DNA of 64,000 nt from an uncultured Spirochaetota bacterium (lineage in GTDB: Bacteria > Spirochaetota > B62-G9 > DRHN01): NCBI GenBank assembly GCA_964521865.1, contig CAZFTJ010000003.1, positions 183,745-247,744 of the forward strand, written 5' to 3'. Below the pieces are notes generated by a model, which saw only the letters and a list, made by a program, of their open reading frames with translations, was not told the DNA's origin and made no database searches. How positions within the stretch are numbered: position 1 is the first letter of the stretch; the number at the start of each line of letters is the position of its first letter. Below are positions 8,875 to 58,965 of the stretch, piece by piece. The translations under genes and the position numbers were made by a program.

Positions 8875-9018
8875 ACCCCTCCTCCATTCTCCCGAAATTT
8901 GATGTTTAAATATTCTAATGTGGCTGTGAAAAAAAGAGAGCGGCAGCATGCCTTACGCATGATTTTAGGAGGCTTTTCCCGGATTATGAGGCGAACCCCG
9001 GGGATACGCACTGCCCGT

Positions 9019-43221: not shown

Positions 43222-43986
43222 CTATTCCATGAGAGTAGTAATATTCCACCTCTTCAGCTTTTCCACAACATCAACCGCCGTTATATCCATGCGAAGCGGT
43301 GTTATCGACACGCTGTTGTCATGAACGGCCCGCACATCGGTACCGAGTTCATCGATTTCATGAACGAGCGAGCCTTCGATCCAGTAATACTTGTTCTTTT
43401 TCGGGTCTTCACGCTCAACGAGCGCATCGTCATAATCTCGCCGTCCCATGCGGGTTATCTCTATGCCCTTGACGTCCTCTATCTTAATGTTCGGAACATT
43501 CAGGTTTAAGATAATATTCCTGTCCAGGTTGCGCTCCACGATTCTGCCGAGCAGTTTCTTTGCGAAATGGGCAGCTGTTTTATAGTGCACCATTCGTCCG
43601 CTGTTGTCAATGGAAACTGCAATACCGGGGATATTGTGCGTGGTTGCCTGAAATGCCGCCGATACGGTGCCCGAATAAAACACATCTGTTCCCAAATTCA
43701 ACCCGTTGTTGATTCCGGTTACCACCATATCGATCCTCTGCTTAATAATGCCCAATAGAGCGAGATGCACGGCGTCAACAGGCGTTCCATCGATTGCATA
43801 AACCCTCCCCTCCTCGATTACCTTCACCCGTAACGGGTCGTGCAGTGACATGGAATGACCGGCAGCGCTTCTCTCTCTGTCCGGAGCCACCACAAATACT
43901 CGATAGTCCGGCTCCAGATGTTCCTTGAGCGCCCATATGCCTCTGCTGTTTATGCCGTCGTCATTTGATATGAGAACATTCTTCAT
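43222..43986 (-). CDS. surE: 5'/3'-nucleotidase SurE
   Basis: Start at the internal ATG (MKNVLISNDDGINSRGI); SurE motifs NDDGI and APDRERSAAGHS. Confidence 0.85.
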   Translation of the reverse strand: MKNVLISNDDGINSRGIWALKEHLEPDYRVFVVAPDRERSAAGHSMSLHDPLRVKVIEEGRVYAIDGTPVDAVHLALLGIIKQRIDMVVTGINNGLNLGTDVFYSGTVSAAFQATTHNIPGIAVSIDNSGRMVHYKTAAHFAKKLLGRIVERNLDRNIILNLNVPNIKIEDVKGIEITRMGRRDYDDALVEREDPKKNKYYWIEGSLVHEIDELGTDVRAVHDNSVSITPLRMDITAVDVVEKLKRWNITTLME

Positions 43987-44216
43987 AAAAAAACACCTCC
44001 GGTTATTCTTACATCGTTCCCGGTACCGAATGACTGTTCCAGTGGTCCCGGCATCCATTTTTTCTGGTAAAAGGTAAAAGACAAAGCTCTAAAGAAAAGG
44101 GCAAGAAAATTAAAAAAAATTAATTTCCTTTTAATGGAGATTTAATCCTGATGCTTTATATATAAGTACATTGAGCCTAAAGCTCAAATAAAAAATTTTT
44201 TCCAGGAGGTGTTGTT

Positions 44217-44723
44217 ATGACACTTAAAAAAAGATTCAAGATTGTTGCCGTGTCGATACTGGCGGGAAGTTTCGTTTTACTGAGTGTTGCAGGGTTGCAG
44301 GCTCAGGGCAGCAGGACAAAACAGACAGATACAAGCAACAAAGGATCGATTTATGCGGGCGAACACGAAAAAGGCACAGCGCAGGGAGATGCCGAGCTTG
44401 CCGGGCAGGCCAGGATAACCGCAGCTGATGCTGTAAAGGCAGCTTCAAATGCCTATCCCGGGTATACGACAGATAGGGTTGAAATCGAGAATGAGAATGG
44501 TTACCTTATCTACTCCGTAAAAATGCTCGATAAATCCGGAAAGGTTTTACATGTAAAGGTAGATGCGGGCGATGCAAAGATTTTAGCGGAAGATAAGTCT
44601 GCCGATAATGACGGCGAAACCAACGACTCAAGGAGAGAAAGTGAAAAGAACGGAAATGAGCATGAGAATGGACATGATACGGACAATAAACAAAACGAAC
44701 AGCAGGGGGAACACGAAGGATAA
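44217..44723 (+). CDS. Secreted PepSY-domain protein with acidic low-complexity tail
   Basis: Signal peptide, PepSY-like core (ITAADAVKAASNAYPGYTTDRVEIENENGYLIYSVKMLDKSGKVLHVKVDAGDAKIL), then an Asp/Glu/Asn/His-rich tail. Confidence 0.6.
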   Translation: MTLKKRFKIVAVSILAGSFVLLSVAGLQAQGSRTKQTDTSNKGSIYAGEHEKGTAQGDAELAGQARITAADAVKAASNAYPGYTTDRVEIENENGYLIYSVKMLDKSGKVLHVKVDAGDAKILAEDKSADNDGETNDSRRESEKNGNEHENGHDTDNKQNEQQGEHEG

Positions 44724-44754
44724 TTTGAAAGAATAAAAACCCCATGCTTTGTAA

Positions 44755-44790
44755 GCTTCCGCCCTGTTAAAAGGGCAGAAGCTTTTTTTT
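44755..44790 (+). terminator. Rho-independent terminator after the PepSY gene
   Basis: GCTTCCGCCCT-gttaaa-AGGGCAGAAGC (10 of 11 bp paired) followed by T8. Confidence 0.65.
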
Positions 44791-44999
44791 GATTTTTTTG
44801 CAGCCCAGAAAATAAAAGAATCGACCGTTTATGTCGTTTCATGAAAGTTGCTTCCTGATACTCGATTGACCTGACGTCCCTGCCTCGATAAACAATTCAA
44901 TACAAGATTAAAAAATTTTAATTTTTAACTCATCCCTGTTTAATGTTCTGTTCGTATATATGTCGAGAGGAAAAAGAAATTTATCAAGGGGGTGCAATC

Positions 45000-45629
45000 A
45001 TGAAGGGAATGCGATTGGTAGTAGTCGTTACTGTAATTTTGGTCGGTGCAGTCTTTACCGGATGCAGTAAAAAAAATACGTCTGCCGAAAACAGGGCCTC
45101 TTCCTCACAAAACATGCACGCAGATACTCAACGTGCAGAAAAACCGGTTGCTCCGGAAAAAAATCCGCCCGGAGATATTCCCGATAACCAGGCATTTGTT
45201 ACATATATTTCCGCTGCAGGCGGTTATGAGCTCGAGGTCCCTGAAGGCTGGGCGCGGAAAACAAACGGTATGAATGTCGTTTTCACAGAAAAATTGGATG
45301 GACTTTCCACCGTCCTTACAAATTCATCGCAAACACCCGGTGTAGAGAGTATTCGCGCCGATCAAGCTGAAAAACTGAAAAAAACAGGAAGGGCTGTAAC
45401 AATTAAGAAAATTAAGGATGTAAAACTTGCAAGCGGACCCGCTGTGCTCATGGTGTATGAATCCAACTCCGAGCCGGATCCTGTTACCGCTAAACAGATG
45501 CGTCTCGAAAATGATACATTTTTCTTTTTTAAAAAGGGCAGGATTGCCGAGCTCAGATTATGGGCGCCTCTCGGTGCCGATAATGTCGACCAGTGGAAGC
45601 GAATCTCAAATAGTTTCAGATGGAGGTAA
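45000..45629 (+). CDS. Lipoprotein of unknown function, first gene of the ABC cassette
   Basis: Start at ATG 45000 preceded by AAGGGGG; signal peptide with lipobox VFTGC; no recognisable catalytic motif. Confidence 0.55.
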   Translation: MKGMRLVVVVTVILVGAVFTGCSKKNTSAENRASSSQNMHADTQRAEKPVAPEKNPPGDIPDNQAFVTYISAAGGYELEVPEGWARKTNGMNVVFTEKLDGLSTVLTNSSQTPGVESIRADQAEKLKKTGRAVTIKKIKDVKLASGPAVLMVYESNSEPDPVTAKQMRLENDTFFFFKKGRIAELRLWAPLGADNVDQWKRISNSFRWR

Positions 45630-45630
45630 T

Positions 45631-46296
45631 ATGAGAGTACTGGAGGGATTCGACATATACCGTTTTTATCATGTAGAAGAGGAAGAAACGCTCGCCTTGC
45701 GAGGAGTGAGTATTCATGTCGATTCGGGAGAAATTGTTGCGGTGCAGGGCCCTTCCGGCAGCGGCAAATCCACACTCCTGGCATGCCTCGCAGGGCTCGA
45801 CGAGCCCGACGGCGGATGTGTAATGCTTTTGGGTAAACGGATCACAAGGCGTGCGGAGGTGGAACGCGCAAAAATACGCGCCCGGATGCTCGGCATAATG
45901 CTCCAGTCTGGAAATCTCCTTGATCATCTTTCTGTCGAGGACAATATAAGGCTCCAAATGCATATTGCGGAAAAGATCAATAAAAAACGGCTGGGAGAAT
46001 TAATTGAAATGACAGGATTAATACACCGCGGGCACGCGTATCCCTCACAAATCTCAGGAGGGGAAGCTGCGCGTGCCGGTCTTGCCGTTGCAATTGCCGC
46101 AGAGCCGATACTGCTGCTTGCAGACGAGCCGACCAGTGAAGTTGACGCCGAAACCGAGCGGCGTATTTTACAACTGCTTGACTGCTATAGAAAAAATGGG
46201 GGGGCGGTACTTGTTGTTACGCACAGCGATGCAGTGGCGCAATTTGCCGACCGTACCATCCATTTGTTTGATGGGAGGATTTTGGAAAATGTCTAA
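45631..46296 (+). CDS. ABC transporter ATP-binding protein with degenerate signature motif
   Basis: Walker A GPSGSGKST, Walker B LLLADEPTSEVD, H-loop VTHS; signature reads ISGGEAARAGLAVA rather than LSGGQQQR. Confidence 0.8.
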   Translation: MRVLEGFDIYRFYHVEEEETLALRGVSIHVDSGEIVAVQGPSGSGKSTLLACLAGLDEPDGGCVMLLGKRITRRAEVERAKIRARMLGIMLQSGNLLDHLSVEDNIRLQMHIAEKINKKRLGELIEMTGLIHRGHAYPSQISGGEAARAGLAVAIAAEPILLLADEPTSEVDAETERRILQLLDCYRKNGGAVLVVTHSDAVAQFADRTIHLFDGRILENV

Positions 46297-46951
46297 TACA
46301 TATGTCAATATGCAGGATATCTGGAGAATTTATGTACGGGGAAAGACTATTATTACTGCACTTGATTCGATCTATTGTAAAGTGCATACCGGTGATCGAA
46401 TTGCAGTGGTCGGACCATCGGGAAGCGGCAAATCAACGCTGCTGCATATCATGGGCGGGCTTGATACACCGACAAAAGGAACTATCGCCTGGCCCGCCTT
46501 CGGCAGGAAAGAGCACCTCCGCCCTGAAGAAGTCGGCTTTGTATTTCAATCAGTCAGCCTCTTCCCCTCGCTCACCATACTGGAAAACATCGAGCTCCCG
46601 CTTCTGCTCAGATATATAAAACCGTTGGAGGCGCTGGATTCCGCCATGACGGCTCTTAAATACATGGAGCTTGAGCCGATTGCGTATAAATTACCGGAGG
46701 AAGTTTCCGGAGGTCAAGCCCAACGTGTTGCAGTCGCCCGTGCACTGGCATCCAACCCGCGACTAATTCTTGCAGATGAACCGACCGGACAGCTCGATCA
46801 TCCCACTGCGGAGCATCTTTTTGATTTACTTCTTAAATCCCTGGAATCATCGGAAATGGCGCTGGTCGTCGCAACTCACGATTCTTTGATAGCGAGGCGG
46901 ATGGATAAAATCTGGCACATGAAGCACGGCAGGATGGAGGTGTTAAAATGA
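46289..46951 (+). CDS. ABC transporter ATP-binding protein with canonical motifs
   Basis: Walker A GPSGSGKST, signature VSGGQAQRVAVARA, Walker B LILADEPTGQLD, H-loop ATHD. ATG overlaps the upstream stop. Confidence 0.82.
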   Translation: MSNTYVNMQDIWRIYVRGKTIITALDSIYCKVHTGDRIAVVGPSGSGKSTLLHIMGGLDTPTKGTIAWPAFGRKEHLRPEEVGFVFQSVSLFPSLTILENIELPLLLRYIKPLEALDSAMTALKYMELEPIAYKLPEEVSGGQAQRVAVARALASNPRLILADEPTGQLDHPTAEHLFDLLLKSLESSEMALVVATHDSLIARRMDKIWHMKHGRMEVLK

Positions 46952-49602
46952 TTTTCCTGTTCCGATGGATCAAAGGGATATTTATCTCTCGTTCGGGCAG
47001 CCTCCTCGGAGCAATAGCCGGAACAGCTCTCACCATGACTTTTCTCGCATCCCTCGGAATATTTCTTGCTGCGAGCTCTGCAACATTGACTAAACGGGCG
47101 GTATCGGACGTTCCGGTGGACTGGCAGATACTGCTCACGTCCAGCGCGAAAGAGCATAAAATCACAGAAGCAATCGGGAAAACGACCAAATACACAGCAC
47201 TGGAAAAAGTCGGCTATGCAAATGTGAGCGGATTTTCGGCAGCAACAGGGGGAACGGTTCAGACTACCGGACCTGGAAAGGTACTTGGAATCGGCCCGGG
47301 TTACCTGGACAGTTTTCCAAGGGAAATACGCTCGCTTACGGGTTTGAAACAGGGGGTGCTTGTTTTTCAGCAAACCGCAGCAAACCTGCATGTGAAAGAG
47401 GGGAATATCGTTACCGTAATGAGAACAGGATTAGCGCCGGTTCAGGTAAAGGTTGAGGGTATAGTCGATCTTCCTTACGCGGATTCATTATTTCAGGCAG
47501 TAGGAGTCCCACCGGGCATGGCTCCAAAAGCACCCCCGGATAACGTACTTTTAATGCCGGAAAGCAGGTGGCACGCCATTTTCGATCCCCAGGCCCGGAT
47601 ACGACCCGATACGGTACATGTACAATATCACATCCGTCTTGCGCATAACCTGCCTGCCGATCCGACGTCAGCATATACGTATGTAAAACAACTGGCCAAT
47701 AACCTGGAAGCTCGAATTGCAGGCAGTGGAATCGTGGGAAACAACATCGCCGCACGCCTGCTGGCAGTGCGTGCAGATGCGCTTTACGCCCGGGTACTCT
47801 TCCTCTTCCTGGGCCTGCCGGGCGCAATTCTCGCAATTCTGTTAACAGTATCCATTACAGCCTCCGGAAAGAACCACAGGCTTCAGGAACAGGTCCTGCT
47901 CAGAACCAGGGGAGCCTCAATCGGACAGATCCTGAAGTTTGAATCTTTGGAAGCTTTTATAACAGGGATATGCGGTGTGATTGTGGGAACGGCCCTCGTC
48001 TATTTAACCGAAAAGTTCCTTGCACCGGGTGCCATGATGAACAGATCGGCCATATTCTGGATTTCAGGTTCAGGCGCAGCAGGTCTTATCCTCGCCGTAA
48101 CCGGTGTAATGTACCCTGCATGGAAGCACGCCCGTTTGTTTACGGTATCGTCGTCAAGATCCCTTGTAAGGACTTCTGGAAGGTCTCTATGGCAGAAACT
48201 CTATCTTGATTTTATTTTAATCGCTTCTTCATTACTCATATACTGGAGAATCAGTAGTCTGGGGTACCAGGTAGTGCTGGCTCCTGAAGGCGTACCCCAG
48301 GCAACTGTACACTACGATGCCTTTATTGCGCCTTTTTGCCTGTGGGTTGGCGGTGTTTTATTTACCGTTCGTTTCTGGGAAAACGGCCTTAACCGGCGCC
48401 GTATTATTTCAAAACTTTTACACCCGGTTGCAGGGAACCTGTCGGGGGTTGTTGCCGCATCTCTCGGCCGCCAGCGTACGAGCCTTACACGCGGTGTTAT
48501 TTTAGTCGCCCTTGCGATATCCTTTGCCGTCTCCACGGCAATCTTTAATACGACCTACAATGCTCAGTCGGTGGTGGACGCACAGCTTACCAACGGTTCC
48601 GATGTAACGATACGGGGTTTGACAACAGCACCGCCTGATAAAATAATATCTCAGTTGAATAATCTCGAGGGAGTCTCTGCAGTACAGCCGATGATGCACA
48701 GATTTGCCTATGTTGGGAACGATCTGCAGGATATCTACGGTATCGACCCAAAACATATCGGAAAGGCAACAAGTATATCAAACGCCTATTTTGCAAACGG
48801 CAATGCAAAAGAGGCGCTTTCCCTGCTCGTTCAACAACCGGATGGGGTTCTGGTTTCAGAGGAGACAAGGCGTGATTTCCAGCTTCATAAAGGAGATCGT
48901 TTAAATCTCCGACTGCAATTTGCAAACGATCATCAGTACCATATTGTACCTTTCAGGTATGTGGGAGTAGTGCGTGAGTTTCCCACCGCACCGACCGACT
49001 CCTTCCTTGTCGCAAATTCCAGTTATATTGCACAGAAAACAAAGATCAATGCAAAAGAAATAGTTTTAATAAAGGCAAGCGGCAATCCGACAAACCTTGG
49101 AGAGAAAGTAAAAAAGATTGTTGCTCCGCTTCCGGGTGCGAGAGTTACGGACATCGGCTCTACACAAAAAGTGATAAGTTCAAGTCTGACTTCAATAAAT
49201 CTACAAAGGCTCACCCGGTTGGAACTTGTTTTTGCAGTGTTGCTGGTAATGGGTGCAACCGGCTTGATACTTGGCCTCGGATTGAATGAGCGAAGGCGTA
49301 ATTTTGCAATTCTTGATGCACTCGGAGCGAAACGCAGTCAACTCGGTGCATTCATCTGGAGTGAAGGTATCCTGATGCTCATCGGGGGAATAATAATCGG
49401 CATGCTGCTTGGGTTTGGCATTGCTCATATACTTGTAAAGGTATTGAAAGGCGTTTTCGATCCCCCGCCGGAGCACCTCGTGATCCCGTGGGTGTACCTC
49501 GGATTGCTCGTCGCTGCTTCCGTTTCTTCTACAATTATTGCCGTGTTGGGAATGAAGTTCATTTCCCATCGACCGTTGACGGAAGAGCTCAGGAAATTGT
49601 AG
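46948..49602 (+). CDS. Large FtsX/MacB-type ABC permease
   Basis: 884 aa; two modules, each a large extracytoplasmic domain followed by a helical bundle with FtsX-type C-terminal helices. Start overlaps the preceding ATPase stop. Confidence 0.78.
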   Translation: MIFLFRWIKGIFISRSGSLLGAIAGTALTMTFLASLGIFLAASSATLTKRAVSDVPVDWQILLTSSAKEHKITEAIGKTTKYTALEKVGYANVSGFSAATGGTVQTTGPGKVLGIGPGYLDSFPREIRSLTGLKQGVLVFQQTAANLHVKEGNIVTVMRTGLAPVQVKVEGIVDLPYADSLFQAVGVPPGMAPKAPPDNVLLMPESRWHAIFDPQARIRPDTVHVQYHIRLAHNLPADPTSAYTYVKQLANNLEARIAGSGIVGNNIAARLLAVRADALYARVLFLFLGLPGAILAILLTVSITASGKNHRLQEQVLLRTRGASIGQILKFESLEAFITGICGVIVGTALVYLTEKFLAPGAMMNRSAIFWISGSGAAGLILAVTGVMYPAWKHARLFTVSSSRSLVRTSGRSLWQKLYLDFILIASSLLIYWRISSLGYQVVLAPEGVPQATVHYDAFIAPFCLWVGGVLFTVRFWENGLNRRRIISKLLHPVAGNLSGVVAASLGRQRTSLTRGVILVALAISFAVSTAIFNTTYNAQSVVDAQLTNGSDVTIRGLTTAPPDKIISQLNNLEGVSAVQPMMHRFAYVGNDLQDIYGIDPKHIGKATSISNAYFANGNAKEALSLLVQQPDGVLVSEETRRDFQLHKGDRLNLRLQFANDHQYHIVPFRYVGVVREFPTAPTDSFLVANSSYIAQKTKINAKEIVLIKASGNPTNLGEKVKKIVAPLPGARVTDIGSTQKVISSSLTSINLQRLTRLELVFAVLLVMGATGLILGLGLNERRRNFAILDALGAKRSQLGAFIWSEGILMLIGGIIIGMLLGFGIAHILVKVLKGVFDPPPEHLVIPWVYLGLLVAASVSSTIIAVLGMKFISHRPLTEELRKL

Positions 49603-52009
49603 ATGTATTGCGCCCAGGAAAACTGAAGTAGGCCGCCGAGTATAAACCCGCTGCAATTAAATAAATCATAGTAAAACCAAGCTGCATGGAAAGAATACTT
49701 GTTACAACGGTTGCAAAAACAGATACCGAACCGTTGATGGATAACGCCCACGGGAGAAATTTTTCCCTACGGTTGGAAATTATCTGCAATCCAAGTGGAA
49801 AAGGGAAGCCCATAAAAAACCCAAGAGGGGCGAGAGCAATAAGTGCAATAACAATGCGAATAATTACCGGAAACCCAATGAGCGTTCCAAAAAGAGGAGT
49901 AAATAAAAACACATTTAGCAAAAGTGATCCGATAACTCCGGATACTCCCACCGTAATTCCTCGTAACGGTCTATCCGTATATCTGCTCGAAAATTGCGAG
50001 CCGAGCCCGGAAAAAACAAGCAGTGCGGAAATTACAAATGCCACGCTGTAGAGTGGATTTGCAAGGAATAGGGTCAACTTCTGAATAACGGCAATCTCAA
50101 TAAACATAAAACCCATCCCCAAAACGGAAAAGTAAATGATTACCCGGCATTTTCCCTTTTCCTTCGAAAATCTCCTGTGGGAAAAAAGCAATGGAAACGA
50201 AATAATCAGAAAGCTAAAGATTATCCCCTGGAACAAAGTGGCCCAGAGGAGGAGGTAGCCCCATTCGGAATACGGTATAGTATCCATTCCGCCGTTCAAG
50301 CCAAAAAGGTTTAAAGAAGTCGAAAAACGTAGAAACTGGTTGAAATACGGTTTATTGTCGCTGGGTGGATTTATATTAAAAAAATAGGAATTGAGGAATG
50401 ACTTTTCCGAGTTTCCAAGATACGCCTCGGCAAGTTTATAGTATAATTCATTATTGATCTGATTATTAATATTGGTATCCTGAGATTTAATGCCTGGAAA
50501 GTATGAAAAATCGGCACTGAGATCACCAACCTTTTTTTTTGTTAACTCAATATCATGGTCGGCAAAAATACCGTTTTTTATCATTACCGAACCCCAATCG
50601 AGTCCGCGGATAAAAATCATCCTTCTTGAAAAATCGCCCGGATGCATCTTTTTTAAATATGAGAAAGATAACGATTCAAGCTTTAATAATGTACGGGGAG
50701 GAGATTTCATATTCATGGAAATGTACAGGATACCGTCTTTTTTTAACCTTGAAATGTATTCGGAGATAGCCTCGGTGGTAAATAGATAGTTTTCTCCGTG
50801 CCCCGTTCCTGATGAAAACGAAATACCGGATGAGACCATTGCAGGAATAAGAATAAGATCGTATTTTCCCTTTTCTCGCTTACAAAAAGACCGCCCGTTA
50901 CTTATCCGAATGCTGAGATTATTCTCATTCCAAAGCCCTGCTGTATATTGTTTAAAGTTTTTATGTATCAAAGAAACAAGCGGCTTGTTCGGCTCTACCG
51001 CGGTAATTCTACGGGCGCCAAGCCTTTCGGCAAACAGGATGGGGTTACCGCCATCTACTCCAAGAATCAATACTTCAGGTTTTTTTTTAATTGAGAAAGG
51101 TAAAGAAAACGGAAGATAGTTTATATATTCGGCATCCTTGTCCTTGAAATTTCTTAAAATGCCCGACGCAGATATTCCATCAATAAAAACACCGTCCTCA
51201 TTGGGTACATCTACTTTATAACTTGAAAGAGAAAGCCCCGGGGCAAAATGAAATTGTTCACTTCTCACTATCTGAATATACCCCAGAGGTGAAGAAACCG
51301 TTTTTATTATCCTGGAATCGGGCGCTTTCAGGGCGTATGAAATATCTTTATATTGAGAAATCTTCAGGCTTATACCAAGAAAATAAGGGACCAAAGCTGC
51401 AACTAATACGATACCAGCAAAAATAGTCTGTCTCATCCATTTATATTTTTTAATCTGAAAAAGCAAAGCCAGTGCACCAAAAAAAATTACAGGAAGCATC
51501 AAATACTGGGGGCTGAGAAAAAACATGATAATAAGGATGGAAATTGCTCCGATTCCGGAACCAAACATATTAAAAAAATAAAGCGTTCCGATTCTTTTCT
51601 TCATCTTTAAGAATGCAAGATTGATAAAAAGAGAGCCGGCAAAAAAGGGCATAAAGTAAATGGCATAGTAGAGACCGAGATAAATTAGCTGTTTTTTATC
51701 CTGATGCAGGCTTTGCGGAACAAAGGGGACCTGCTCACCCAAAATAAAGACATACGCTGAAATAACTATAAAAGCAGAGGCCGACCAGAAGAGCCACTCA
51801 TCCAGGACAGGCTCTATATTGTCCTTATATATCGTAAGTACTGTTGCGGAAAGTCCATAACCGAGAATTGCTATGCTTATAATCATTGCTGCGAAACCGG
51901 AGCTGTTAATAACACTCATAAATCGGATGCTTCCCATTTCCACGGCAAGTGTTGCGATAGATATAAAAAAAACAGAAACGAGGTATCTTTTTGCCATTTT
52001 TATGAACAC
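49589..52009 (-). CDS. Membrane-bound spermidine-synthase-like (aminopropyltransferase-fold) protein
   Basis: 806 aa; many hydrophobic helices at both ends; central soluble region colinear with the spermidine-synthase fold (VLILGVDGGNPILFAERLGARRITAVEPNKPLV; KYDLILI; LKKDGILY). Confidence 0.6.
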   Translation of the reverse strand: MFIKMAKRYLVSVFFISIATLAVEMGSIRFMSVINSSGFAAMIISIAILGYGLSATVLTIYKDNIEPVLDEWLFWSASAFIVISAYVFILGEQVPFVPQSLHQDKKQLIYLGLYYAIYFMPFFAGSLFINLAFLKMKKRIGTLYFFNMFGSGIGAISILIIMFFLSPQYLMLPVIFFGALALLFQIKKYKWMRQTIFAGIVLVAALVPYFLGISLKISQYKDISYALKAPDSRIIKTVSSPLGYIQIVRSEQFHFAPGLSLSSYKVDVPNEDGVFIDGISASGILRNFKDKDAEYINYLPFSLPFSIKKKPEVLILGVDGGNPILFAERLGARRITAVEPNKPLVSLIHKNFKQYTAGLWNENNLSIRISNGRSFCKREKGKYDLILIPAMVSSGISFSSGTGHGENYLFTTEAISEYISRLKKDGILYISMNMKSPPRTLLKLESLSFSYLKKMHPGDFSRRMIFIRGLDWGSVMIKNGIFADHDIELTKKKVGDLSADFSYFPGIKSQDTNINNQINNELYYKLAEAYLGNSEKSFLNSYFFNINPPSDNKPYFNQFLRFSTSLNLFGLNGGMDTIPYSEWGYLLLWATLFQGIIFSFLIISFPLLFSHRRFSKEKGKCRVIIYFSVLGMGFMFIEIAVIQKLTLFLANPLYSVAFVISALLVFSGLGSQFSSRYTDRPLRGITVGVSGVIGSLLLNVFLFTPLFGTLIGFPVIIRIVIALIALAPLGFFMGFPFPLGLQIISNRREKFLPWALSINGSVSVFATVVTSILSMQLGFTMIYLIAAGLYSAAYFSFPGRNTSTIS

Positions 52010-52012
52010 TTC

Positions 52013-52783
52013 TTACGATTTATTATACTTTTCAAGCATCTTGCCGGTGAAGGGGACAAATTTACAGGACCTCAATCGCTGTGTTGTAATTTTACCATCT
52101 TCTTTCTTGTTTATTAACAGCAAGGTCTGCCTGTCAAAGGGATTGCCCACCGGGATAACGATAATACCTCCCGGTTTTAACTGGCGAAGAAGATACACGG
52201 GAACATGGTCGGCAGCACAGGTTACGATAATCTTATCGTATGGAGCATATGAGTCCCAGCCGTAATAACCGTCCCCCGTTTTTCCTTTAATGTTTGAATA
52301 TCCAAGCTCTTTCCATCTTCTGGCGGCCTGTTCTGCAAGCTGTGGAACAATCTCAATGCTATACACCTTTGATGTAATCTGAGATAAAATCGAAGCCTGG
52401 TATCCTGAACCTGAACCGATCTCAAGCACAGAGTCCCCCGGTTTAAGTTCCAGCAGATTTGTCATGTATGCTACAAACCACATATTGGTAATTGTCTGTC
52501 CATATCCAATGGGAAGCGGATACTCTTTATACGTATCATTGCGCTTGCTTTTGGGAACAAAAAATTCACGTGGAACCGCAAGAACCGCTTTAAGAACACT
52601 CTCACTAAAATTAGTGGTTTCGCTGTAATGCGCCACTCTTTCCTTTCGCTGCTTCAGATAGTATTCAGGTGATACATAACTGTACCCCGATAACGGAACG
52701 ACCATACAATAAACGATAACAATTATTGCTAAGCACCTTAATGCCTTCATACCATCCTCCGGTTTACTCAATTTTATCATCAA
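52013..52783 (-). CDS. pcm: Protein-L-isoaspartate O-methyltransferase, with N-terminal signal/anchor
   Basis: SAM-binding motif VLEIGSGSGYQ plus the post-I and motif II/III regions of PIMT (KVYSIEIVPQLAEQA; GGIIVIPVG). Hydrophobic N-terminus suggests export; the start may be M1 or M12. Confidence 0.8.
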   Translation of the reverse strand: MMIKLSKPEDGMKALRCLAIIVIVYCMVVPLSGYSYVSPEYYLKQRKERVAHYSETTNFSESVLKAVLAVPREFFVPKSKRNDTYKEYPLPIGYGQTITNMWFVAYMTNLLELKPGDSVLEIGSGSGYQASILSQITSKVYSIEIVPQLAEQAARRWKELGYSNIKGKTGDGYYGWDSYAPYDKIIVTCAADHVPVYLLRQLKPGGIIVIPVGNPFDRQTLLLINKKEDGKITTQRLRSCKFVPFTGKMLEKYNKS

Positions 52784-52855
52784 TCATTCCAACCTTCTAA
52801 GATACTATTTGCTTTGACATTAAGAAAATAAGGATTAAAAATTAATTGGAGATTA

Positions 52856-52890
52856 AAGGAAGATTAAAACTCTTTAATTTTAATGGGGAG
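52856..52890. repeat. Palindrome-containing 33-nt element, copy 1 (overlaps the 3' end of the histidine kinase gene)
   Basis: AAGGAAGATTAAAACTCTTTAATTTTAATGGGG; about 30 of 33 identical to 56461-56493, with weaker similarity extending to 52811. Contains inverted 7-mers ATTAAAA/TTTTAAT. Confidence 0.6.
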
Positions 52891-54222
52891 AAGAACGGTA
52901 AAAATACTCCCTTTCCCAGGTGTACTTTGGACTTCAACACAGCCCTTATGCGCATCAACTATCCATTTTACGATGGAAAGGCCCAGTCCTGTCCCATCCC
53001 CGCTCCTCGCATCGTCTATCCTGTAGAACCTGTCGAAAATATGATCGAGATGCTCGAGCGGTATTCCTGCACCGCTGTCTTCCACCGTTATTTTCGCACA
53101 CTCGCCTTCTCTATGGAGCCCCACAGTAACCAGTCCATGCTCGCTGTTATACTTTATTCCATTGTCAATCAGATTAATGAACAGCCGTGTAATAAGTGTC
53201 TGATCGACTCGCATTTTAATACTCCTATCACCCTGAAAAACAAGTCTTACTCCGTTTTTCTCCGCTATGCTTCTCATTTCATCAACGACCTCTTCGGCGA
53301 TGATCCCGATATCTATATCTTCTATTTCCATTCTATACTTGTTTTCGTCCCCTCTTGTCAGGTTTAACAACTGAGCTACCATCACACCCATTTTCCTGCT
53401 CTCCTTCAGAATAATCTGCAAAGCTTCTCTGTATTCACTTACCGTTCTATTTCCTGCAAGCGCCTCTTCCGACTGAGCGGAAATAACTGCTATCGGAGTC
53501 CTCAGCTCATGAGATGCATCCGAGGTAAACTGCCTCTCCCTCTTAAATGAGGATTCCAATTTTTCAAGCATATCATCGAAAACTTTCACGAGCCTCCCCA
53601 CCTCGTCTTTAACCTCCGGCAGGTTGAGCCTCTGTGTTAAATCGCCACGCCCAATTGCCTCCGCAGTTCTCGTTATATGATCTATCGGAGCCAACGATTT
53701 TTTTGCGAGAAACAACGCTCCTACAACAGCAATAACTATGCCGGCAGGTACGGCGAACAGTATCATCATTTTCAGAATATCAAGCGTCTCTTTGACAGGA
53801 TTGAGTGAGCGAACCGCACGTACCCATGCAACTATTCTGTTTTCTTCATACACTGCCTGATCGTATACAAGAAAGTTCTCTTCATGTATTTCAAAATTTC
53901 TTATCTTGTTGAACTCCGGAGTAAGCTTGGAAATCTGTGGATAGGGCCTGCTTCCTGCAACTATCCTGTTTTTTACATCATACAGAGTAACGGATGTTCC
54001 GGTGGTTTTAAATTCCTGAAGCTCACTGTTGGTGATATTCCCATTTTCAACCTCTACTGACGATACAACCTGCGCAGCGTGTGCCTTTATAAGCTCTTTC
54101 GTCCCCTGATACATGATCTTTGACATCGAAACATAGATAAATGCACTGAAACCCCCGAGCAGCAGCAGAAGCATTGAGGTGAACCATAGAGTGATCTTTG
54201 CACTGATCGTTAATCTTCTCAC
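52864..54222 (-). CDS. Sensor histidine kinase (two transmembrane segments, HAMP, HisKA, HATPase_c)
   Basis: 452 aa; H-box SHELRTPIAVI, N box LIDNGIKYN, G boxes DSGAGIP and GTGLGLSIV; periplasmic loop between two hydrophobic segments. Confidence 0.88.
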   Translation of the reverse strand: MRRLTISAKITLWFTSMLLLLLGGFSAFIYVSMSKIMYQGTKELIKAHAAQVVSSVEVENGNITNSELQEFKTTGTSVTLYDVKNRIVAGSRPYPQISKLTPEFNKIRNFEIHEENFLVYDQAVYEENRIVAWVRAVRSLNPVKETLDILKMMILFAVPAGIVIAVVGALFLAKKSLAPIDHITRTAEAIGRGDLTQRLNLPEVKDEVGRLVKVFDDMLEKLESSFKRERQFTSDASHELRTPIAVISAQSEEALAGNRTVSEYREALQIILKESRKMGVMVAQLLNLTRGDENKYRMEIEDIDIGIIAEEVVDEMRSIAEKNGVRLVFQGDRSIKMRVDQTLITRLFINLIDNGIKYNSEHGLVTVGLHREGECAKITVEDSGAGIPLEHLDHIFDRFYRIDDARSGDGTGLGLSIVKWIVDAHKGCVEVQSTPGKGSIFTVLLPIKIKEF

Positions 54223-54896
54223 TACTTCTCCTTAAGAATATACCCGCTTCCTCTCAGAGTATGGATCAATTTTGTTTTAAAACCGTCATCGATCTTGCGC
54301 CTTAAATACCGTATGTATACCTCCACGACATTGGAGTTATAGTCAAAGTCGTAATTCCAGACATGTTCTATGATCTGAGACCTTGTCAGGAGTATTCCCT
54401 TGTTTCGCAAGAAATATTCGAGCATGGCGTATTCCTTTGCCGTCAGCTCAATAATTTTTTCACCTCTTTTGGCAATATGCGTTGTCGTATCAAGGGTTAG
54501 ATCCCCAACTCTTAATACCACTTCTCTTTCTTCCCCGCGCCTTCTCAACAGTGCCCTCACTCTTGCTAAAAGCTCGTCGAAAGAAAAAGGTTTGGTCAGA
54601 TAATCATCGGCGCCCATGTCAAGCCCCCTCACCCTGTCTTCAATCGCATCTTTTGCCGTTAAAATCAAAACTGGCGTCGGTTTTTTTCTTATCCTTAATT
54701 TTTGCAGCACCGTAAAACCGTCAATAACAGGAAGCATTAAATCAAGAATTATACAATCGTAATTCACAACTTCAGCGAAATCCAGCCCTTCCTGCCCGTC
54801 CTTAGCCGTATCAACAATATACCCCGCCTCCTTCAATCGCCTGGCTATTGTTTTGAGCAGGGAGGGCTCATCCTCCACAACCAGCATCCTCATCAT
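54222..54896 (-). CDS. OmpR-family response regulator
   Basis: 224 aa; receiver (MLVVEDEP...ILDLMLP...LTAKD) plus winged-helix output domain (VYIRYLRRKID...LRGSGY). Confidence 0.9.
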   Translation of the reverse strand: MMRMLVVEDEPSLLKTIARRLKEAGYIVDTAKDGQEGLDFAEVVNYDCIILDLMLPVIDGFTVLQKLRIRKKPTPVLILTAKDAIEDRVRGLDMGADDYLTKPFSFDELLARVRALLRRRGEEREVVLRVGDLTLDTTTHIAKRGEKIIELTAKEYAMLEYFLRNKGILLTRSQIIEHVWNYDFDYNSNVVEVYIRYLRRKIDDGFKTKLIHTLRGSGYILKEK

Positions 54897-54901
54897 TGGC
54901 C

Positions 54902-54974
54902 CCTTCCTTCATACCTACCCCGGTCATTTCCTGCACACCGATCCTTATTCCGTCAGGATTGGCGACGTTCCTGA
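54902..54974. repeat. Duplicated fragment of the glyA 3' region, immediately upstream of the response-regulator start
   Basis: About 72 nt at around 93% identity to 56722-56793 inside glyA; the fragment translates as NVANPDGIRIGVQEMTGVGMKE and ends at the regulator ATG. Confidence 0.7.
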
Positions 54975-54987
54975 ATAGATTTTTTTA

Positions 54988-55551
54988 TCAATCAATTATA
55001 GGGATTTTTAGCCCGATAGTCGAGGAAATGCCGCTAACATTAAGGTCTTCTATTGACGGTGGAATTAAAAACTTATATTTAATATCCAGGATGAATGATA
55101 ACCTGTTTTTCAAGGGAAACTCAAGGCCTGTATTAATAATGTACCCATACGTGGCTGAATAATACGGTCTTTCAAACCATGGATTCTTGTCGAATTTGAA
55201 AATTACACCGAAACCCGCACCAAAAAAAGGTCTGATCCTGGTATCCGGTTCTGTATTTGTGTATAAAGCAATCAGATTCATTGGAACTATAAGAAGCGTA
55301 TGCCTTTTTCCGTTGTATTTCACCGATGTAAATGTTGCACCTGAAGAAATATTAAAAGATAAGTGTGTCCTTTTATAAACATCGGTTGCAATAATTGCTG
55401 ATGGCGCGATTTTATAAAACTCTTTTGAAACTTCATCTGTAAAATCATAAATACCGAATTGTAGCACTAAATTGTCAGCCAATAACGGTAACGGCGAAAA
55501 AATAATTAAAAGAACAAAGAGCTTATAAATCGAAATCTTCGATAACTTCAT
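54988..55551 (-). CDS. Putative outer-membrane beta-barrel protein
   Basis: Signal peptide (KLFVLLIIFSPLPLLA), then alternating hydrophobic/aromatic strands; ends IPIID without a typical terminal aromatic residue. Start at ATG 55551. Confidence 0.45.
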   Translation of the reverse strand: MKLSKISIYKLFVLLIIFSPLPLLADNLVLQFGIYDFTDEVSKEFYKIAPSAIIATDVYKRTHLSFNISSGATFTSVKYNGKRHTLLIVPMNLIALYTNTEPDTRIRPFFGAGFGVIFKFDKNPWFERPYYSATYGYIINTGLEFPLKNRLSFILDIKYKFLIPPSIEDLNVSGISSTIGLKIPIID

Positions 55552-56365
55552 TAAAAATTCCAATCGTTTTAATATTTATTCTGTTCGTTTTTTCATAAAT
55601 AGAAACTTTAAGGAAATGATAAAAATCTTCACCATATCCATAATCCAAAGGCGCGCCCGCACCTCCAGTAGTGATATACGTAACATTATCCTTTACAAAT
55701 TTATTATATGAATGTTCGTGCGAAACAATAACGGCTTTTATTTTATCGTACAAAGTGAAAAGATGATGGACCTCGTCTGCATTTTTCATATTTGTGCCTT
55801 TATATACGCCTTGAGGATAAAGGGGGTGGTGAATAAAGATAAAAACATTTTTGATGTCAGGTTTAGAAGCTGCGGAATCCAATTGATTCTTTAACCAATT
55901 GAATTGTTTTAGACCAATGCTATTTTCTTCATTACGAATATAGGAATCAAGAATTATAAAATATGAATGTGAATAACCAAATGAAAAATAAAACGTATCC
56001 CTTGATATACCGGTTTGTTCTTTAAAAATTTCTTCTGATTTTTTATCATTCCCTTCATGATTTCCCCTTGCTATATAAAGCGGCATTTTATCTGTGAGGG
56101 GTTTAGAATAATGCCAGAAATCCGCCCATTCGACCTCATTGCCACTTTTTTTCATAATATCGCCATTGCATATAGCAAATTTAGGAGTAGGCTCAATGGT
56201 TCTCATATATTCTACAAGCTTACCGTATACTCCAAATCCCTGTCTCAAATCACCGAACACAACAAACGACCAATCCTCATCAGAAGGCTCAATTTGTACT
56301 ACAGAACAGGACGGAATAAGTATTATGATTGCTATAAATACTTTTTTTAAAATTTTTAAGACCAT
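55523..56365 (-). CDS. Calcineurin-like metallophosphoesterase, probable lipoprotein
   Basis: Metallophosphatase motifs GDLRQ, GDIM, GNHE and IHHP...HEH; N-terminal signal with LIPSC lipobox. Confidence 0.75.
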   Translation of the reverse strand: MVLKILKKVFIAIIILIPSCSVVQIEPSDEDWSFVVFGDLRQGFGVYGKLVEYMRTIEPTPKFAICNGDIMKKSGNEVEWADFWHYSKPLTDKMPLYIARGNHEGNDKKSEEIFKEQTGISRDTFYFSFGYSHSYFIILDSYIRNEENSIGLKQFNWLKNQLDSAASKPDIKNVFIFIHHPLYPQGVYKGTNMKNADEVHHLFTLYDKIKAVIVSHEHSYNKFVKDNVTYITTGGAGAPLDYGYGEDFYHFLKVSIYEKTNRINIKTIGIFNEVIEDFDL

Positions 56366-56460
56366 ACCGACCCGGCACTGTACATATAATCGAGGTATTT
56401 GTTTTAAGACATATACACATTATTTAAGGTAGCTTAAGGCTTGAACATTAAAGGAAAATT

Positions 56461-56496
56461 AAGGGAAGATTAAAACTTTTTAATTTTAACGGGTGG
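56461..56496. repeat. Palindrome-containing 33-nt element, copy 2 (upstream of the metallophosphoesterase gene)
   Basis: AAGGGAAGATTAAAACTTTTTAATTTTAACGGG; similarity to copy 1 extends to about 56439. No kinase gene is attached here. Confidence 0.6.
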
Positions 56497-56566
56497 CGCC
56501 TTTTATTTTTTTCTGCAAATGAGATTTTTCCAAACACGTCGATAAACAGATGCCCGGTTTTCGCGT

Positions 56567-57841
56567 TTACAGCCTGTTCGGCGATTCGAGCTCTGATAGA
56601 AGCTCGTCAAATGAATACTTCACCGTTTCGAAGTTTTCACGGAATTTATTGACCCTTTCCCTCACTTCCTTACCCTTCTGAATGCAGAAGGCAATGAAGT
56701 CGGCAATCTGCTCCATTTCTTCCTCCTTCATACCTACCCTGGTCATCTCCTGCACCCCGATTCTTATTCCGTCAGGATTGGCGACGTTCCTGAGCGGCTC
56801 ATGGGGAAGTATATTCATATTCAGGATAATATCGTTCTCCTTTAGAAGGTTCGCCACCATTTTCCCGCCTCCGTACTCTTTGACATCGGCCGCAATCTGA
56901 TGGGACTCGGTAAACCCGAACTCCTCGGCAACCACATTGAATTTTTTATGTTTCATCGCCCTTCCGAGTGCTTTCGCATTTTTAACTACCTGATTACTGT
57001 ACTCCTTCCCGAAACTGATGATCTCCTGGGTCGCGACTGCAAGTCCGACCAGGGTATCGAGGTGATGATTGCTCGATGAGCCCGGGAAGGCACCTTTGTC
57101 GACTTTCTGCCACTCCGTGCTGCCCATATTGCTCAGTATTATCCCCCGCTGGGTTCCGAAATAGGTCTTGTGAGTGCTGCCGGTAACGATGAATGCACCC
57201 TCGCCGATGGGATCCTGAAACATGCCGCCGGCAATAAGACCGAGCACATGGGCCGCGTCGTATACCATTTTTATTCGATATTCGGAACAGATGTCTCTGA
57301 GCTCCCTGAGGGGCTCGGGAAAGAGAAAGAGGCTCTTGCCGAAGATGAGCATCCGTGGCCTGCACACATGAATGAGCTCTTTCGTGCGTTCGATATCGAT
57401 ATGAAACCCATCTCTCGAAAGTGGAAAATCAATGACATTCTTTGTAAATTTACCGACCGATCCGGCAAGATGGTGGCTGATATGCCCGCCGCCCGGAGTT
57501 GAGTTAACCATAACGATATCGCCGTTTGCAATAAAACTGGAAAATACCGCTTCATTTGCGTTGGTTCCGCTTATCGGGCGGACATCTGCATGTGAGCATC
57601 GGAAAAGCGTCTTAATATCGTTTCTGAGATCGCTTTCGATTTTGTCGATGAACTCCGTACCCTGATAGTACCGTTCGCCCGGATGTCCCTCCGCATATCG
57701 GTGCGCAAAATCCGACCCTGCAAGCTGCCGGACGGTTTGAGACATAATGTTCTCGCTCGCAATGAGATTCACCGTCCTTCTTCTCCATTCATTCTGCTTC
57801 CTGACACTCTCATAGAGATTTCTCACATATTTCTCAAGCAT
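56567..57841 (-). CDS. glyA: Serine hydroxymethyltransferase
   Basis: SHMT motifs (NLIASENIMS; PLP-lysine region VTGSTHKTYFGTQRG). Start at ATG 57841 preceded by AAAGGAG; the track ORF begins 45 nt earlier. Confidence 0.8.
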   Translation of the reverse strand: MLEKYVRNLYESVRKQNEWRRRTVNLIASENIMSQTVRQLAGSDFAHRYAEGHPGERYYQGTEFIDKIESDLRNDIKTLFRCSHADVRPISGTNANEAVFSSFIANGDIVMVNSTPGGGHISHHLAGSVGKFTKNVIDFPLSRDGFHIDIERTKELIHVCRPRMLIFGKSLFLFPEPLRELRDICSEYRIKMVYDAAHVLGLIAGGMFQDPIGEGAFIVTGSTHKTYFGTQRGIILSNMGSTEWQKVDKGAFPGSSSNHHLDTLVGLAVATQEIISFGKEYSNQVVKNAKALGRAMKHKKFNVVAEEFGFTESHQIAADVKEYGGGKMVANLLKENDIILNMNILPHEPLRNVANPDGIRIGVQEMTRVGMKEEEMEQIADFIAFCIQKGKEVRERVNKFRENFETVKYSFDELLSELESPNRL

Positions 57842-57870
57842 GTTCTTTCCCCAGCTCCTTTCCGAAGAAG

Positions 57871-57906
57871 GGTATAATAAAAACACCCCCGCGAAGCAGA
57901 GGTGTT
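57871..57906 (-). terminator. Stem-loop plus U-run directly upstream of the glyA ribosome-binding site (terminator of the upstream gene, or an attenuator)
   Basis: Minus-strand reading: ACACCTCTGC-ttc-GCGGGGGTGT followed by TTTTTATTAT; sits 30-60 nt upstream of the glyA ATG. Confidence 0.4.
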
Positions 57907-58062
57907 AGAAAAGTACTACATTTATCCCCGTTTGAAAACTCCTCGTTTGTATAACCCTGTTTTGTTCAATAGAGATTTCACGCGAACGGGAGCCGTATGA
58001 CCTGCGCCTGTAAACCGTATCGCTTTGACCGCCCTATAGCCGTAATTTTGCCCTGCCTCAGG

Positions 58063-58965
58063 TCATTCGACCGAGGCACCCATCGAAGCTTTGGGCGGCG
58101 TTACGTCTGTGAAGAAACTCAGCTCCTGAGGATCTGATTCGTTTCCGAGGTTGTCGACCGCTTTCACCCTGAGGACATGGCGTCCCGGCTTCTGTACCAT
58201 GAAGGGGCTCGTATACGCAACGTACTCACTGCCGTCAAGGGAAACAAGAATATCCCGCACGCCGGACATGCCGTCGTTTGCACTGAGTGAATACTCGTTT
58301 GACCTGTTCGTGTAATTAATTCCGTCAACCACAACAAATTGGTCCTCTGGTGTAATGCGCACTACCGGAGGGGTGCTGTCAACATATCCTTCCACCGTGA
58401 ATTCGGCCGTTTTGTTTCCGACATTATCGACTGTATATGCGGTTGCGCTGTGGCGGCCTTCCTGAGTTATGACCATCGGTTCGGTATATGCGATATACCC
58501 GCTGTCGTCAAGGGATACGTAAATCGAATCGACGCCCGAGAGATTGTCCTCTGCCCAGAGCACAATCGCGCTTTTTGTCGATATGTATATTTTACCGTTG
58601 TTGACAAAGAGCGGACCGTCTACCGAGGCAATACCGTCGGGCGGAGTCCCGTCGACGATGACCGAATAAATCTGTTCACTGCTTATATTGTCCGTTTTAT
58701 CTATCGCCCTGTACACGATAATGTGTCTGCCCTCTGTCGAGAAACTGATCGGGCCGTTGTACACCTGAAGAGCGGATCCGTCCACACTGTACTGAATTTC
58801 CTTCAAACTCGATTCATTGTCATTTGCGGACAAAACAAAGCTCGCTGTCATGGGGACATAATCGATAATTCCGTCGTTATAGATCCTCATTTCCTGTCCG
58901 CTCAGAATCTGCAGGGAGCATACACCGAATATGAGAATAAATGATGTGACAAGCCATTTTTTCAT
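58063..58965 (-). CDS. Secreted protein with three tandem Ig-like repeats of about 75 aa
   Basis: Signal peptide (MKKWLVTSFILIFGVCSL); three internal repeats sharing the pattern SxxDxxSGV..I.VSLDxSxY.AYT.P......GRH. Confidence 0.55.
   Translation of the reverse strand: MKKWLVTSFILIFGVCSLQILSGQEMRIYNDGIIDYVPMTASFVLSANDNESSLKEIQYSVDGSALQVYNGPISFSTEGRHIIVYRAIDKTDNISSEQIYSVIVDGTPPDGIASVDGPLFVNNGKIYISTKSAIVLWAEDNLSGVDSIYVSLDDSGYIAYTEPMVITQEGRHSATAYTVDNVGNKTAEFTVEGYVDSTPPVVRITPEDQFVVVDGINYTNRSNEYSLSANDGMSGVRDILVSLDGSEYVAYTSPFMVQKPGRHVLRVKAVDNLGNESDPQELSFFTDVTPPKASMGASVE

Follow-up and report, generated by a model that had tools for sequence, protein, structure and literature searches.

Putative TTAAT operator boxes and a two-gene cassette of variable position in a two-component island of an uncultured Spirochaetota bacterium

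Introduction

The 64-kb stretch of DNA analysed here (the window; contig CAZFTJ010000003.1, positions 183,745 to 247,744) comes from an uncultured Spirochaetota bacterium and carries an OmpR-family two-component system around which two short segments each occur twice. The first of these, R, is found across the 3′ end of the sensor kinase gene (R_A, 52829-52887, minus strand) and again between glyA and a metallophosphoesterase gene (MPE; R_B, 56435-56493, minus strand), and the second is a non-coding copy of a piece of glyA. A first-pass annotation of the same sequence read both pairs as what is left behind when two gene blocks swap places, adding that R might also be a cis-regulatory site. Here, we describe the locus together with its relatives and argue that R is most likely, judging by its motif and its genomic company, an operator of the neighbouring regulator, and that the altered position of a two-gene cassette is a separate matter.

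The locus and its relatives

On the minus strand, the serine hydroxymethyltransferase gene glyA (56567-57886) forms the left anchor of the locus and is followed by MPE (55523-56365), an overlapping gene for a 191-aa candidate OmpW-like outer-membrane protein (the porin gene, 54988-55563), the OmpR-family response regulator (54222-54896), the HAMP/HisKA sensor kinase (52864-54222), the protein-L-isoaspartate O-methyltransferase gene pcm (52013-52783, with its likely ATG at 52750) and p806 (49589-52009; 806 aa), which lies 3′ of pcm. Converging on these from the plus strand is an operon of PepSY, p228, two ABC ATPases and a MacB-type FtsX permease, headed by the PepSY gene that starts at 44217. 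The 3′ ends of p806 and the convergent FtsX gene overlap by 14 nt.

Two relatives found with glyA as query (L003 and L004; ~80% glyA identity) share the order Big-domain protein, glyA, surE, TPR and MMPL. In the window, surE, TPR and MMPL occupy 43986-40119; since glyA directly adjoins surE in both relatives, the 12.6 kb between the two genes (43987-56566), absent from L003 and L004, constitute an island. Three island-bearing lineages were found, namely that of the window, L002 and L015. L002, a metagenome-assembled genome (MAG) from a genome collection, represents the same organism as the JGI metagenome contig L019 and has the gene order of the window plus both repeat pairs; because this independently assembled relative carries them, an assembly artefact is excluded. 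L015, a JGI contig whose other end is L020, encodes a kinase 82% identical to that of the window and is arranged differently: glyA, a 585-nt spacer, regulator, kinase, pcm and p802 are followed on the opposite strand by FtsX, ABC, ABC and p209, then by the mere 3′ end of PepSY and, at the far end of the island and inverted, by the porin gene and MPE. A metagenome scan with MPE returned two relevant loci only, L019 and L020.

By NCBIfam, the best-scoring family for the regulator is TIGR01387 (CztR; 267.6 bits, just below the cut-off of 279.2) and that for the kinase TIGR01386 (CztS; 261.5 bits, below the cut-off of 292.55). As both proteins fall under the curated cut-offs, they do not qualify as members of the CztR/CztS heavy-metal subfamily. 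The same two families are what the pair has in common with the CusR/CopR heavy-metal two-component systems, from which it differs in its neighbours: PepSY, a MacB-type ABC/FtsX transporter, MPE with its OmpW-like partner and pcm stand here in place of cusCFBA or cop genes. The classical CusR box, too, is an inverted repeat, in contrast to the direct repeats described below.

A duplicated segment at two operon heads

A repeat search of the window aligned R_A and R_B without gaps over 59 nt (49/59, 83%), and local alignment of the glyA-MPE spacer with the kinase-tail region gave a score of 68, compared with 17.6 ± 2.8 for shuffled sequences, so the duplication reported in the first pass is real. 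Its extent had been put at the last 27 nt of the kinase gene plus about 50 nt of downstream spacer; the repeat in fact takes in 24 nt at the 3′ end of the kinase open reading frame (52864-52887, encoding PIKIKEF and the stop) plus 35 nt of spacer. The likeness, read on the transcribed strand, is patchy: the first 36 nt agree at 33 positions and the last 23 nt at 16, meaning that three of the 10 differences fall in the former and seven in the latter. A 26-mer core, GGAAGATTAAAACTNTTTAATTTTAA (25 specified bases), is exact at 52858-52883 and 56464-56489 and occurs at just these two sites in the window even with up to three mismatches allowed (0.00 in shuffles).

R_A lies ~91 nt upstream of the pcm ATG (52750). 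R_B stands between glyA and MPE, 73 nt past the stop codon of the former and 81 nt ahead of the ATG (56365) of the latter. Both are composed of TTAAT units in 11-bp phase. Read on the transcribed strand, R_A is ATTAAAATTAAAGAG-TTTTAATC-TTCC-TTTAATC-TCCAA-TTAAT, with a triple TTAAT at 52841-52867 and ATTAAAATTAAA ahead of it; R_B is GTTAAAATTAAAAAG-TTTTAATC-TTCC-CTTAATT-TTCC-TTTAATG, with its triple at 56447-56473. The TAA stop codon of the kinase falls within the first TTAAT unit of R_A (52863-52867), so that the final codons of the kinase gene are at the same time a piece of the box. The palindrome ATTAAAA-N8-TTTTAAT, which the first pass had placed in the shared core, is exact in R_A (52863-52884) and carries one mismatch in R_B. 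The R_A orthologues of L002 and L015 have it in broken form, whereas their three TTAAT units are invariant.

Phased TTAAT boxes across the island

Searching for TTAAT-N6-TTAAT-N6-TTAAT with at most one mismatch yields three matches in the 64 kb, whereas shuffles predict 0.00. Two are those in R_A and R_B; the third is a box on the plus strand at 44120-44146, 71 nt upstream of PepSY (44217). The three thus precede pcm, the MPE-porin pair and the PepSY-ABC operon, each oriented with its downstream operon, and in each the units are spaced by one helical turn, as in a direct-repeat operator. The double unit has six matches in the window, all within the three triple sites, against 0.17 expected. 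Shuffling only the six AT-rich segments (1.5 kb) produced no triple in 2000 shuffles and a mean of 0.08 doubles. The sites are therefore enriched in promoter-proximal intergenic DNA in the manner of operators, 71-91 nt upstream of operon starts.

Conservation points the same way. When R_A of the window is compared with its orthologues in L002 and L015, all 15 TTAAT positions (15/15) are invariant, and 11 of the 44 others vary (Fisher one-sided p = 0.027). Two of the three units of the PepSY box and the TATATA downstream of it are conserved in L033, a Logan contig of the L002 lineage. A fourth, degenerate box (GATTAAAAAATTTTAAT...TTTAATG; 44907-44945, plus strand) lies upstream of p228, past the terminator-like hairpin of PepSY; L033 conserves the orthologous site, which in L015 takes the form of a full triple.

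That R should lack any regulatory role, being either a chance match between AT-rich sequences or a palindromic terminator or element resembling repetitive extragenic palindromes (REP), is scarcely credible. The region is indeed AT-rich and the core contains a 7-bp inverted repeat, but shuffles of the window and of the AT-rich segments alike leave about zero matches expected, the copies stand only at operon heads within the island, and it is the direct repeats rather than the palindrome that the R_A orthologues conserve. In a scan for promoters and terminators, neither copy showed a terminator-like site, and Rfam at permissive thresholds gave no matches over 43500-58200. An intrinsic terminator or REP-like element was accordingly rejected, the stem consisting of A and T only and the 26-mer core having just two copies in 64 kb.

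The box beside related regulator/kinase pairs

A search for kinase homologues, followed by context look-ups, led to five further loci with kinases 57-64% identical to that of the window (L017, L018, L024, L027 and L028). In L017, L024 and L027 the neighbours are unrelated to those of the window, and these loci were used for the motif test only. In all five, the double unit is confined to the surroundings of the regulator/kinase pair. It sits in the divergent spacer between PepSY and the regulator in L018, L024 and L028, and upstream of the regulator gene, in triple form, in L027 and L017. L017 (kinase 58% identical) has a further box directly 3′ of the kinase stop codon, in a position like that of R_A. 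L015 has a box beside its orthologous pair as well, ~165-185 nt upstream of the regulator gene. Conversely, L003 contains no double unit and L004 a single one, neither having the regulator/kinase system at the locus fetched. Box and cognate regulator thus co-occur across genomes. The inverted ATTAAAA upstream of the direct repeats recurs in the distant loci too, which accounts for the palindrome described in the first pass.

Together, the box statistics and the presence of boxes beside orthologous regulator/kinase pairs make it most likely that R is an operator of the neighbouring OmpR-family regulator; the cis-regulatory site that the first pass suspected in the shared core is thus strongly supported. 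Binding by the regulator and promoter activity at the boxes are what we infer from these patterns.

Two side observations concern the gene neighbourhoods of this family. The gene order of the island is a circular permutation of that in L018, in which PepSY is divergent from regulator-kinase and FtsX-ABC-ABC follow. In L028 (53-1722; kinase 57% identical), a gene for a 320-aa metallophosphoesterase adjoins PepSY, divergent from regulator-kinase. A functional link of this two-component family with phosphoesterases may be recurrent. A literature search on PepSY-linked two-component systems returned nothing relevant.

Resemblance to known operators

The closest comparison is with the SaeR site of Staphylococcus aureus, GTTAAN6GTTAA (PMC5083920). 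Both are 5-nt direct repeats with a TTAA core and 11-bp spacing that belong to an OmpR-family regulator and lie upstream of regulon genes, those of the regulator's own operon included. The unit of the window differs in being TTAAT, i.e. offset by one base and without the conserved leading G, in usually occurring three times and in having the inverted ATTAAAA upstream. The regulators differ as well, that of the window scoring best in the CztR subfamily (TIGR01387) and belonging to an uncultured Spirochaetota host; the SaeR model is absent from the 25 best families shown for it. Assignment to a SaeR regulon was consequently rejected.

Pho boxes, the operators of PhoB-type regulators, consist of two 7-bp direct repeats with 4 bp between them. 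The architecture of the window sites can be written in the same way (TTTAATC-TTCC-TTTAATC; 7 + 4 = 11 bp), and the boxes are placed roughly where a -35 element would be. Differences from a Pho box are that the sequence bears no relation to CTGTCAT, that the units number three and that one of the sites extends over the stop codon of the upstream kinase gene.

Origin of the second box

R_A and R_B resemble each other more than the motif demands. They share states outside it (CCC, the TTCC spacer and CCTTA), and R_B matches the R_A of the window at 49 of 59 positions and those of L002 and L015 at 42-43 of 59, which suggests a duplication or gene conversion within the window lineage. The homology of R_B begins at the edge of the box motif.

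An alternative would have R_B as the original autoregulatory operator, with its likeness to R_A imposed by binding constraints; R would then never have been duplicated, and the glyA copy would be the sole scar. Every orthologous module does have a box upstream of the regulator gene, and R_B without the cassette and glyA copy would stand ~75 nt from the regulator ATG, the equivalent distance by our own measurement being roughly 30-60 nt in L017, L024, L027 and L028. Additionally, R_A and the L027 site GGTTAAAATTAAA...TTTTAATCTT are equally close to the R_B core. We nevertheless regard this alternative as unlikely, given that the pair shares these non-motif states, that it scores ~18 standard deviations above shuffles and that the PepSY site, although in the same genome, shows far less similarity to R_A (71% over 31 nt). 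Between a lineage-specific duplicate of R_A and a native upstream operator of the regulator that was partly converted by R_A, duplication is slightly favoured.

A cassette of variable position and a copy of glyA at its edge

The homology blocks that BLAST finds between the window and L015 have their limits at 56566 (the glyA stop), 56380, 54975 and 54906 (the ribosome-binding site of the regulator gene). These ends define an MPE-porin cassette (54975-56380, minus strand) as the block whose position differs between the relatives; its limits lie 15 nt ahead of the MPE ATG and at base 13 past the end of the porin reading frame (54988). The MPE gene and an OmpW-like neighbour also form a conserved overlapping pair in unrelated contexts (L029, L031 and L032). 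The porin protein itself has no Pfam match, and the neighbours of its homologues give weak OmpW matches.

Between the cassette and the ribosome-binding site of the regulator gene lies X′ (54905-54974, minus strand), a 70-nt non-coding copy of X (56724-56793, minus strand) within glyA. As the ends of X′ are those of the L015 homology blocks, it exactly fills the gap between cassette and regulator, ending 8 nt before the regulator ATG. The glyA fragment of the first pass is hence real (70 nt at 94%, i.e. four of 70 positions differ) and marks a junction scar; it is a copy not of the glyA tail but of an internal piece that ends 157 nt before the stop codon. A possible microhomology of GAAGG(A) at the joint of X′ and the regulator hints at illegitimate joining.

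Several observations touch on X′ and its source gene. L033 starts inside X′ (contig positions 1-75), and short-read assemblies evidently break at the 70-nt repeat. Just upstream of X′, a promoter-like TCGACT-17-TATAAT (10/12 matches; minus strand, 54995-55023) extends across the 3′ end of the porin gene into the bases that follow; its TATAAT is conserved in L015, and it could drive a separate transcript of regulator and kinase with X′ as its leader. Outside its own clade, glyA found its best matches in a pattern-based genome-collection scan among MAGs of Paceibacterota, Thermoplasmata and Heimdallarchaeota (43-46% identity), the remaining bacterial MAGs returned being 31-34% identical; by this measure, it is an unusual serine hydroxymethyltransferase type for a Spirochaetota genome. 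An exact-protein look-up of glyA returned no record, a differing called start codon being the probable cause, and that of MPE a match on a 1.8-kb contig only. For p806, which adjoins pcm in all three island-bearing lineages, no Pfam match was found, and its weak match to an aminopropyltransferase family has E = 2e-6.

As to how the duplicates arose, the block swap of the first pass assumed an ancestral order glyA/regulator/kinase/MPE/porin/pcm, altered by duplicative transposition and loss, with R_B and X′ as leftover stubs. In its favour, both duplicates exist and are in direct orientation, segments bounded by X and R occur twice, around the glyA tail and around regulator-kinase, and R_B is closer to the R_A of the window than to the orthologues of R_A. 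A rearrangement of a block did take place, yet the position of the MPE-porin pair alone differs, being inverted and at the far end of the island in L015, rather than that of two blocks. None of the three island-bearing lineages has the kinase next to MPE (0/3); the junction kinase-R_A-pcm is collinear in all of them, across their deepest split, and X′ is far younger (see below). Only X′ abuts a boundary of the block, R_B standing 54 nt from the cassette edge at 56380, with its homology starting at the edge of the motif, inside a 185-nt spacer that has no counterpart in L015. A swap would moreover call for one duplication and at least two deletions, and X′ would have to lose the glyA tail too. 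The swap and the ancestral order that it presupposes, which no relative displays, are therefore very improbable. An ancestral adjacency of glyA and regulator is plausible because L015 has it. Two nested inversions, a Campbell-type circle integration and a tandem duplication with the cassette at the join were likewise considered for X′ and R_B and rejected, each requiring at least three events.

Relative ages and exchange between lineages

Gene-by-gene identities give the backbone tree (window,(L002,L015)). L002 and L015 are 91-94% identical in most backbone genes (89% in the kinase gene), and the backbone of the window is 80-91%, mostly 80-88%, identical to either. The kinase-R_A-pcm junction predates this split, as it is collinear in all three lineages. 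X′, by contrast, matches the X segment of the window or L002 glyA at 64-66 of 70 positions and that of L015 at 51 of 70 (73%), from which it follows that X′ postdates the split and that a window-type allele was its source. No second copy of X is found in L015, L003 or L004.

One part of the locus departs from the backbone tree. Over 55540-57590, comprising the 3′ part of glyA, the spacer, R_B and MPE, the window and L002 are ~99% identical, followed by ~95% over the porin gene (55540-54989) and 64 of 70 positions for the X′ of L002. Backbone identity is reached again within ~20 nt of the start of the regulator gene. The L002 segment from the 3′ part of glyA through MPE and the porin gene is 85-91% identical to L015, and the L002 genes compared on either side of the window-like segment are closer to L015. 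On these identities, the tract marks a recent recombinational exchange between lineages. L002 is consequently not an independent witness of gene order, its segment having been imported from a window-like donor.

This bears on another account, according to which the window-like order is ancestral to all three lineages, L015 being derived by loss associated with insertion sequences or repeats and X′ being a later insertion or maintained by conversion. L015 does bear the marks of disturbance. Upstream of its MPE, L020 1-340 encodes a frameshifted N-terminal remnant of a DUF4372 (IS4-like) transposase (E = 5.7e-21). A direct repeat of ~160 nt (E1, 8757-8930, and E2, 19437-19600), absent from the window, lies in the glyA-regulator spacer and beside the relocated cassette, respectively; it starts with GGTTTTATCCATTAAAA and ends in a hairpin (TAGGCAAGTG...CACTTGCCTA) followed by a T-run, and possibly represents a miniature mobile element or else a gene for a small RNA. 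The cassette of L015 is thus flanked by the transposase remnant and E2, and only the 3′ end of its PepSY gene is left. Furthermore, the window and L002 span the root and share their order, and the 99% tract ends on both sides inside genes, as allelic replacement between collinear loci would give. We consider a window-like ancestor rather unlikely all the same: the L002 segment is an import, L015 has a TTAAT box of its own upstream of the regulator that cannot be aligned with R_B (beyond the box units, the window glyA-MPE and L015 glyA-regulator spacers align at chance level), and the L015 breakpoint would have to coincide with the insertion point of X′. As a side observation on the L015/L020 contig, its first 99 nt are an exact copy of its own 4221-4319, at the ABC2/FtsX junction, which points to an unresolved duplication or an assembly branch.

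A joint reading of putative operator and cassette

The reading that we favour, with a probability of about 0.62, treats R as the operator-type site of the regulator and the move of the cassette as a separate event, its position differing between lineages and the resulting arrangement having later been exchanged by recombination. The operator would consist of the inverted ATTAAAA and, after it, TTAAT units that face the same side of the helix (11-bp phase), and four such sites would head the transcription units of the island: PepSY, p228-ABC-ABC-FtsX (degenerate), MPE-porin (R_B) and pcm-p806 (R_A). The unit behind R_B probably extends through MPE-porin into the regulator and kinase genes, so that the phosphorylated regulator would control all four units, its own genes included. 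In the window, the cassette lies between glyA and the regulator gene, with X′ as the scar of the right-hand junction; this scar arose from a glyA allele of the window type once the window lineage had separated from the other two, and R_B would be the duplicate, or the converted native operator, discussed above. Homologous recombination then carried the arrangement between lineages. The direction and the mechanism of the cassette move are likewise inferred.

Several points weigh against this reading. The operator status of R rests on motif statistics and co-occurrence, and downstream of both R_A and R_B the promoter scan detected no strong sigma-70 -35/-10 pair. The two copies, moreover, cannot count as separate occurrences of the motif. 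That L002 and the window have an identical R_B is uninformative because the surrounding tract is ~99% identical throughout; for the same reason, the whole 2 kb around it being this similar, we rejected its conservation in L002 as a sign of selection. With a difference of 17% between R_B and R_A and of 6% between X′ and X, a single event may not have produced both copies. Finally, L015 is itself heavily rearranged, with its IS4-like remnant, E1/E2 and a PepSY gene reduced to the 3′ end, meaning that the window-like order could be the older one.

Junction filler and templated insertions occur at the joints of illegitimate recombination and template switching, and homology-facilitated illegitimate recombination is known. 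X′ recalls the former, its source being 1.8 kb away and the copy standing exactly at the junction of an inserted block, and the long homologous anchor that one flank has in glyA recalls the latter; with three genomes to go by, such a mechanism is a candidate for the window. On a speculative and quite improbable version, one template-switching event would have inserted the cassette between an autoregulated promoter and the regulator gene, with patches copied from both sides of the target: 70 nt of glyA, whose copy lies 1.8 kb upstream, and the kinase-stop operator, ~2 kb downstream. If this were true, a foreign two-gene cassette would have been wired into a regulon in a single step, and recombination with its anchor in glyA would then have carried the result into a sister lineage.

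Conclusion

An account in terms of rearrangement is thus replaced by a regulatory one that offers a testable putative operator, (ATTAAAA)-[TTAAT-N6] two or three times. It comes with a predicted regulon, comprising PepSY, the MacB-type ABC transporter, MPE and its OmpW-like partner and pcm/p806, for an uncharacterised PepSY-associated two-component family that is known from this Spirochaetota clade and five further contigs (kinases 57-64% identical). The last codons of a kinase gene doubling as the putative operator of the next operon appear to recur in the distant relative L017, where a box follows right after the kinase stop. In addition, exact breakpoints are now available for a two-gene cassette placed behind such a putative operator, in an arrangement exchanged between lineages that are ~15% different in sequence. 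While none of this is surprising in kind, it will be useful for the annotation of these genomes, and it carries a caution of wider use: short duplicated intergenic segments near regulators are often operators, not scars.

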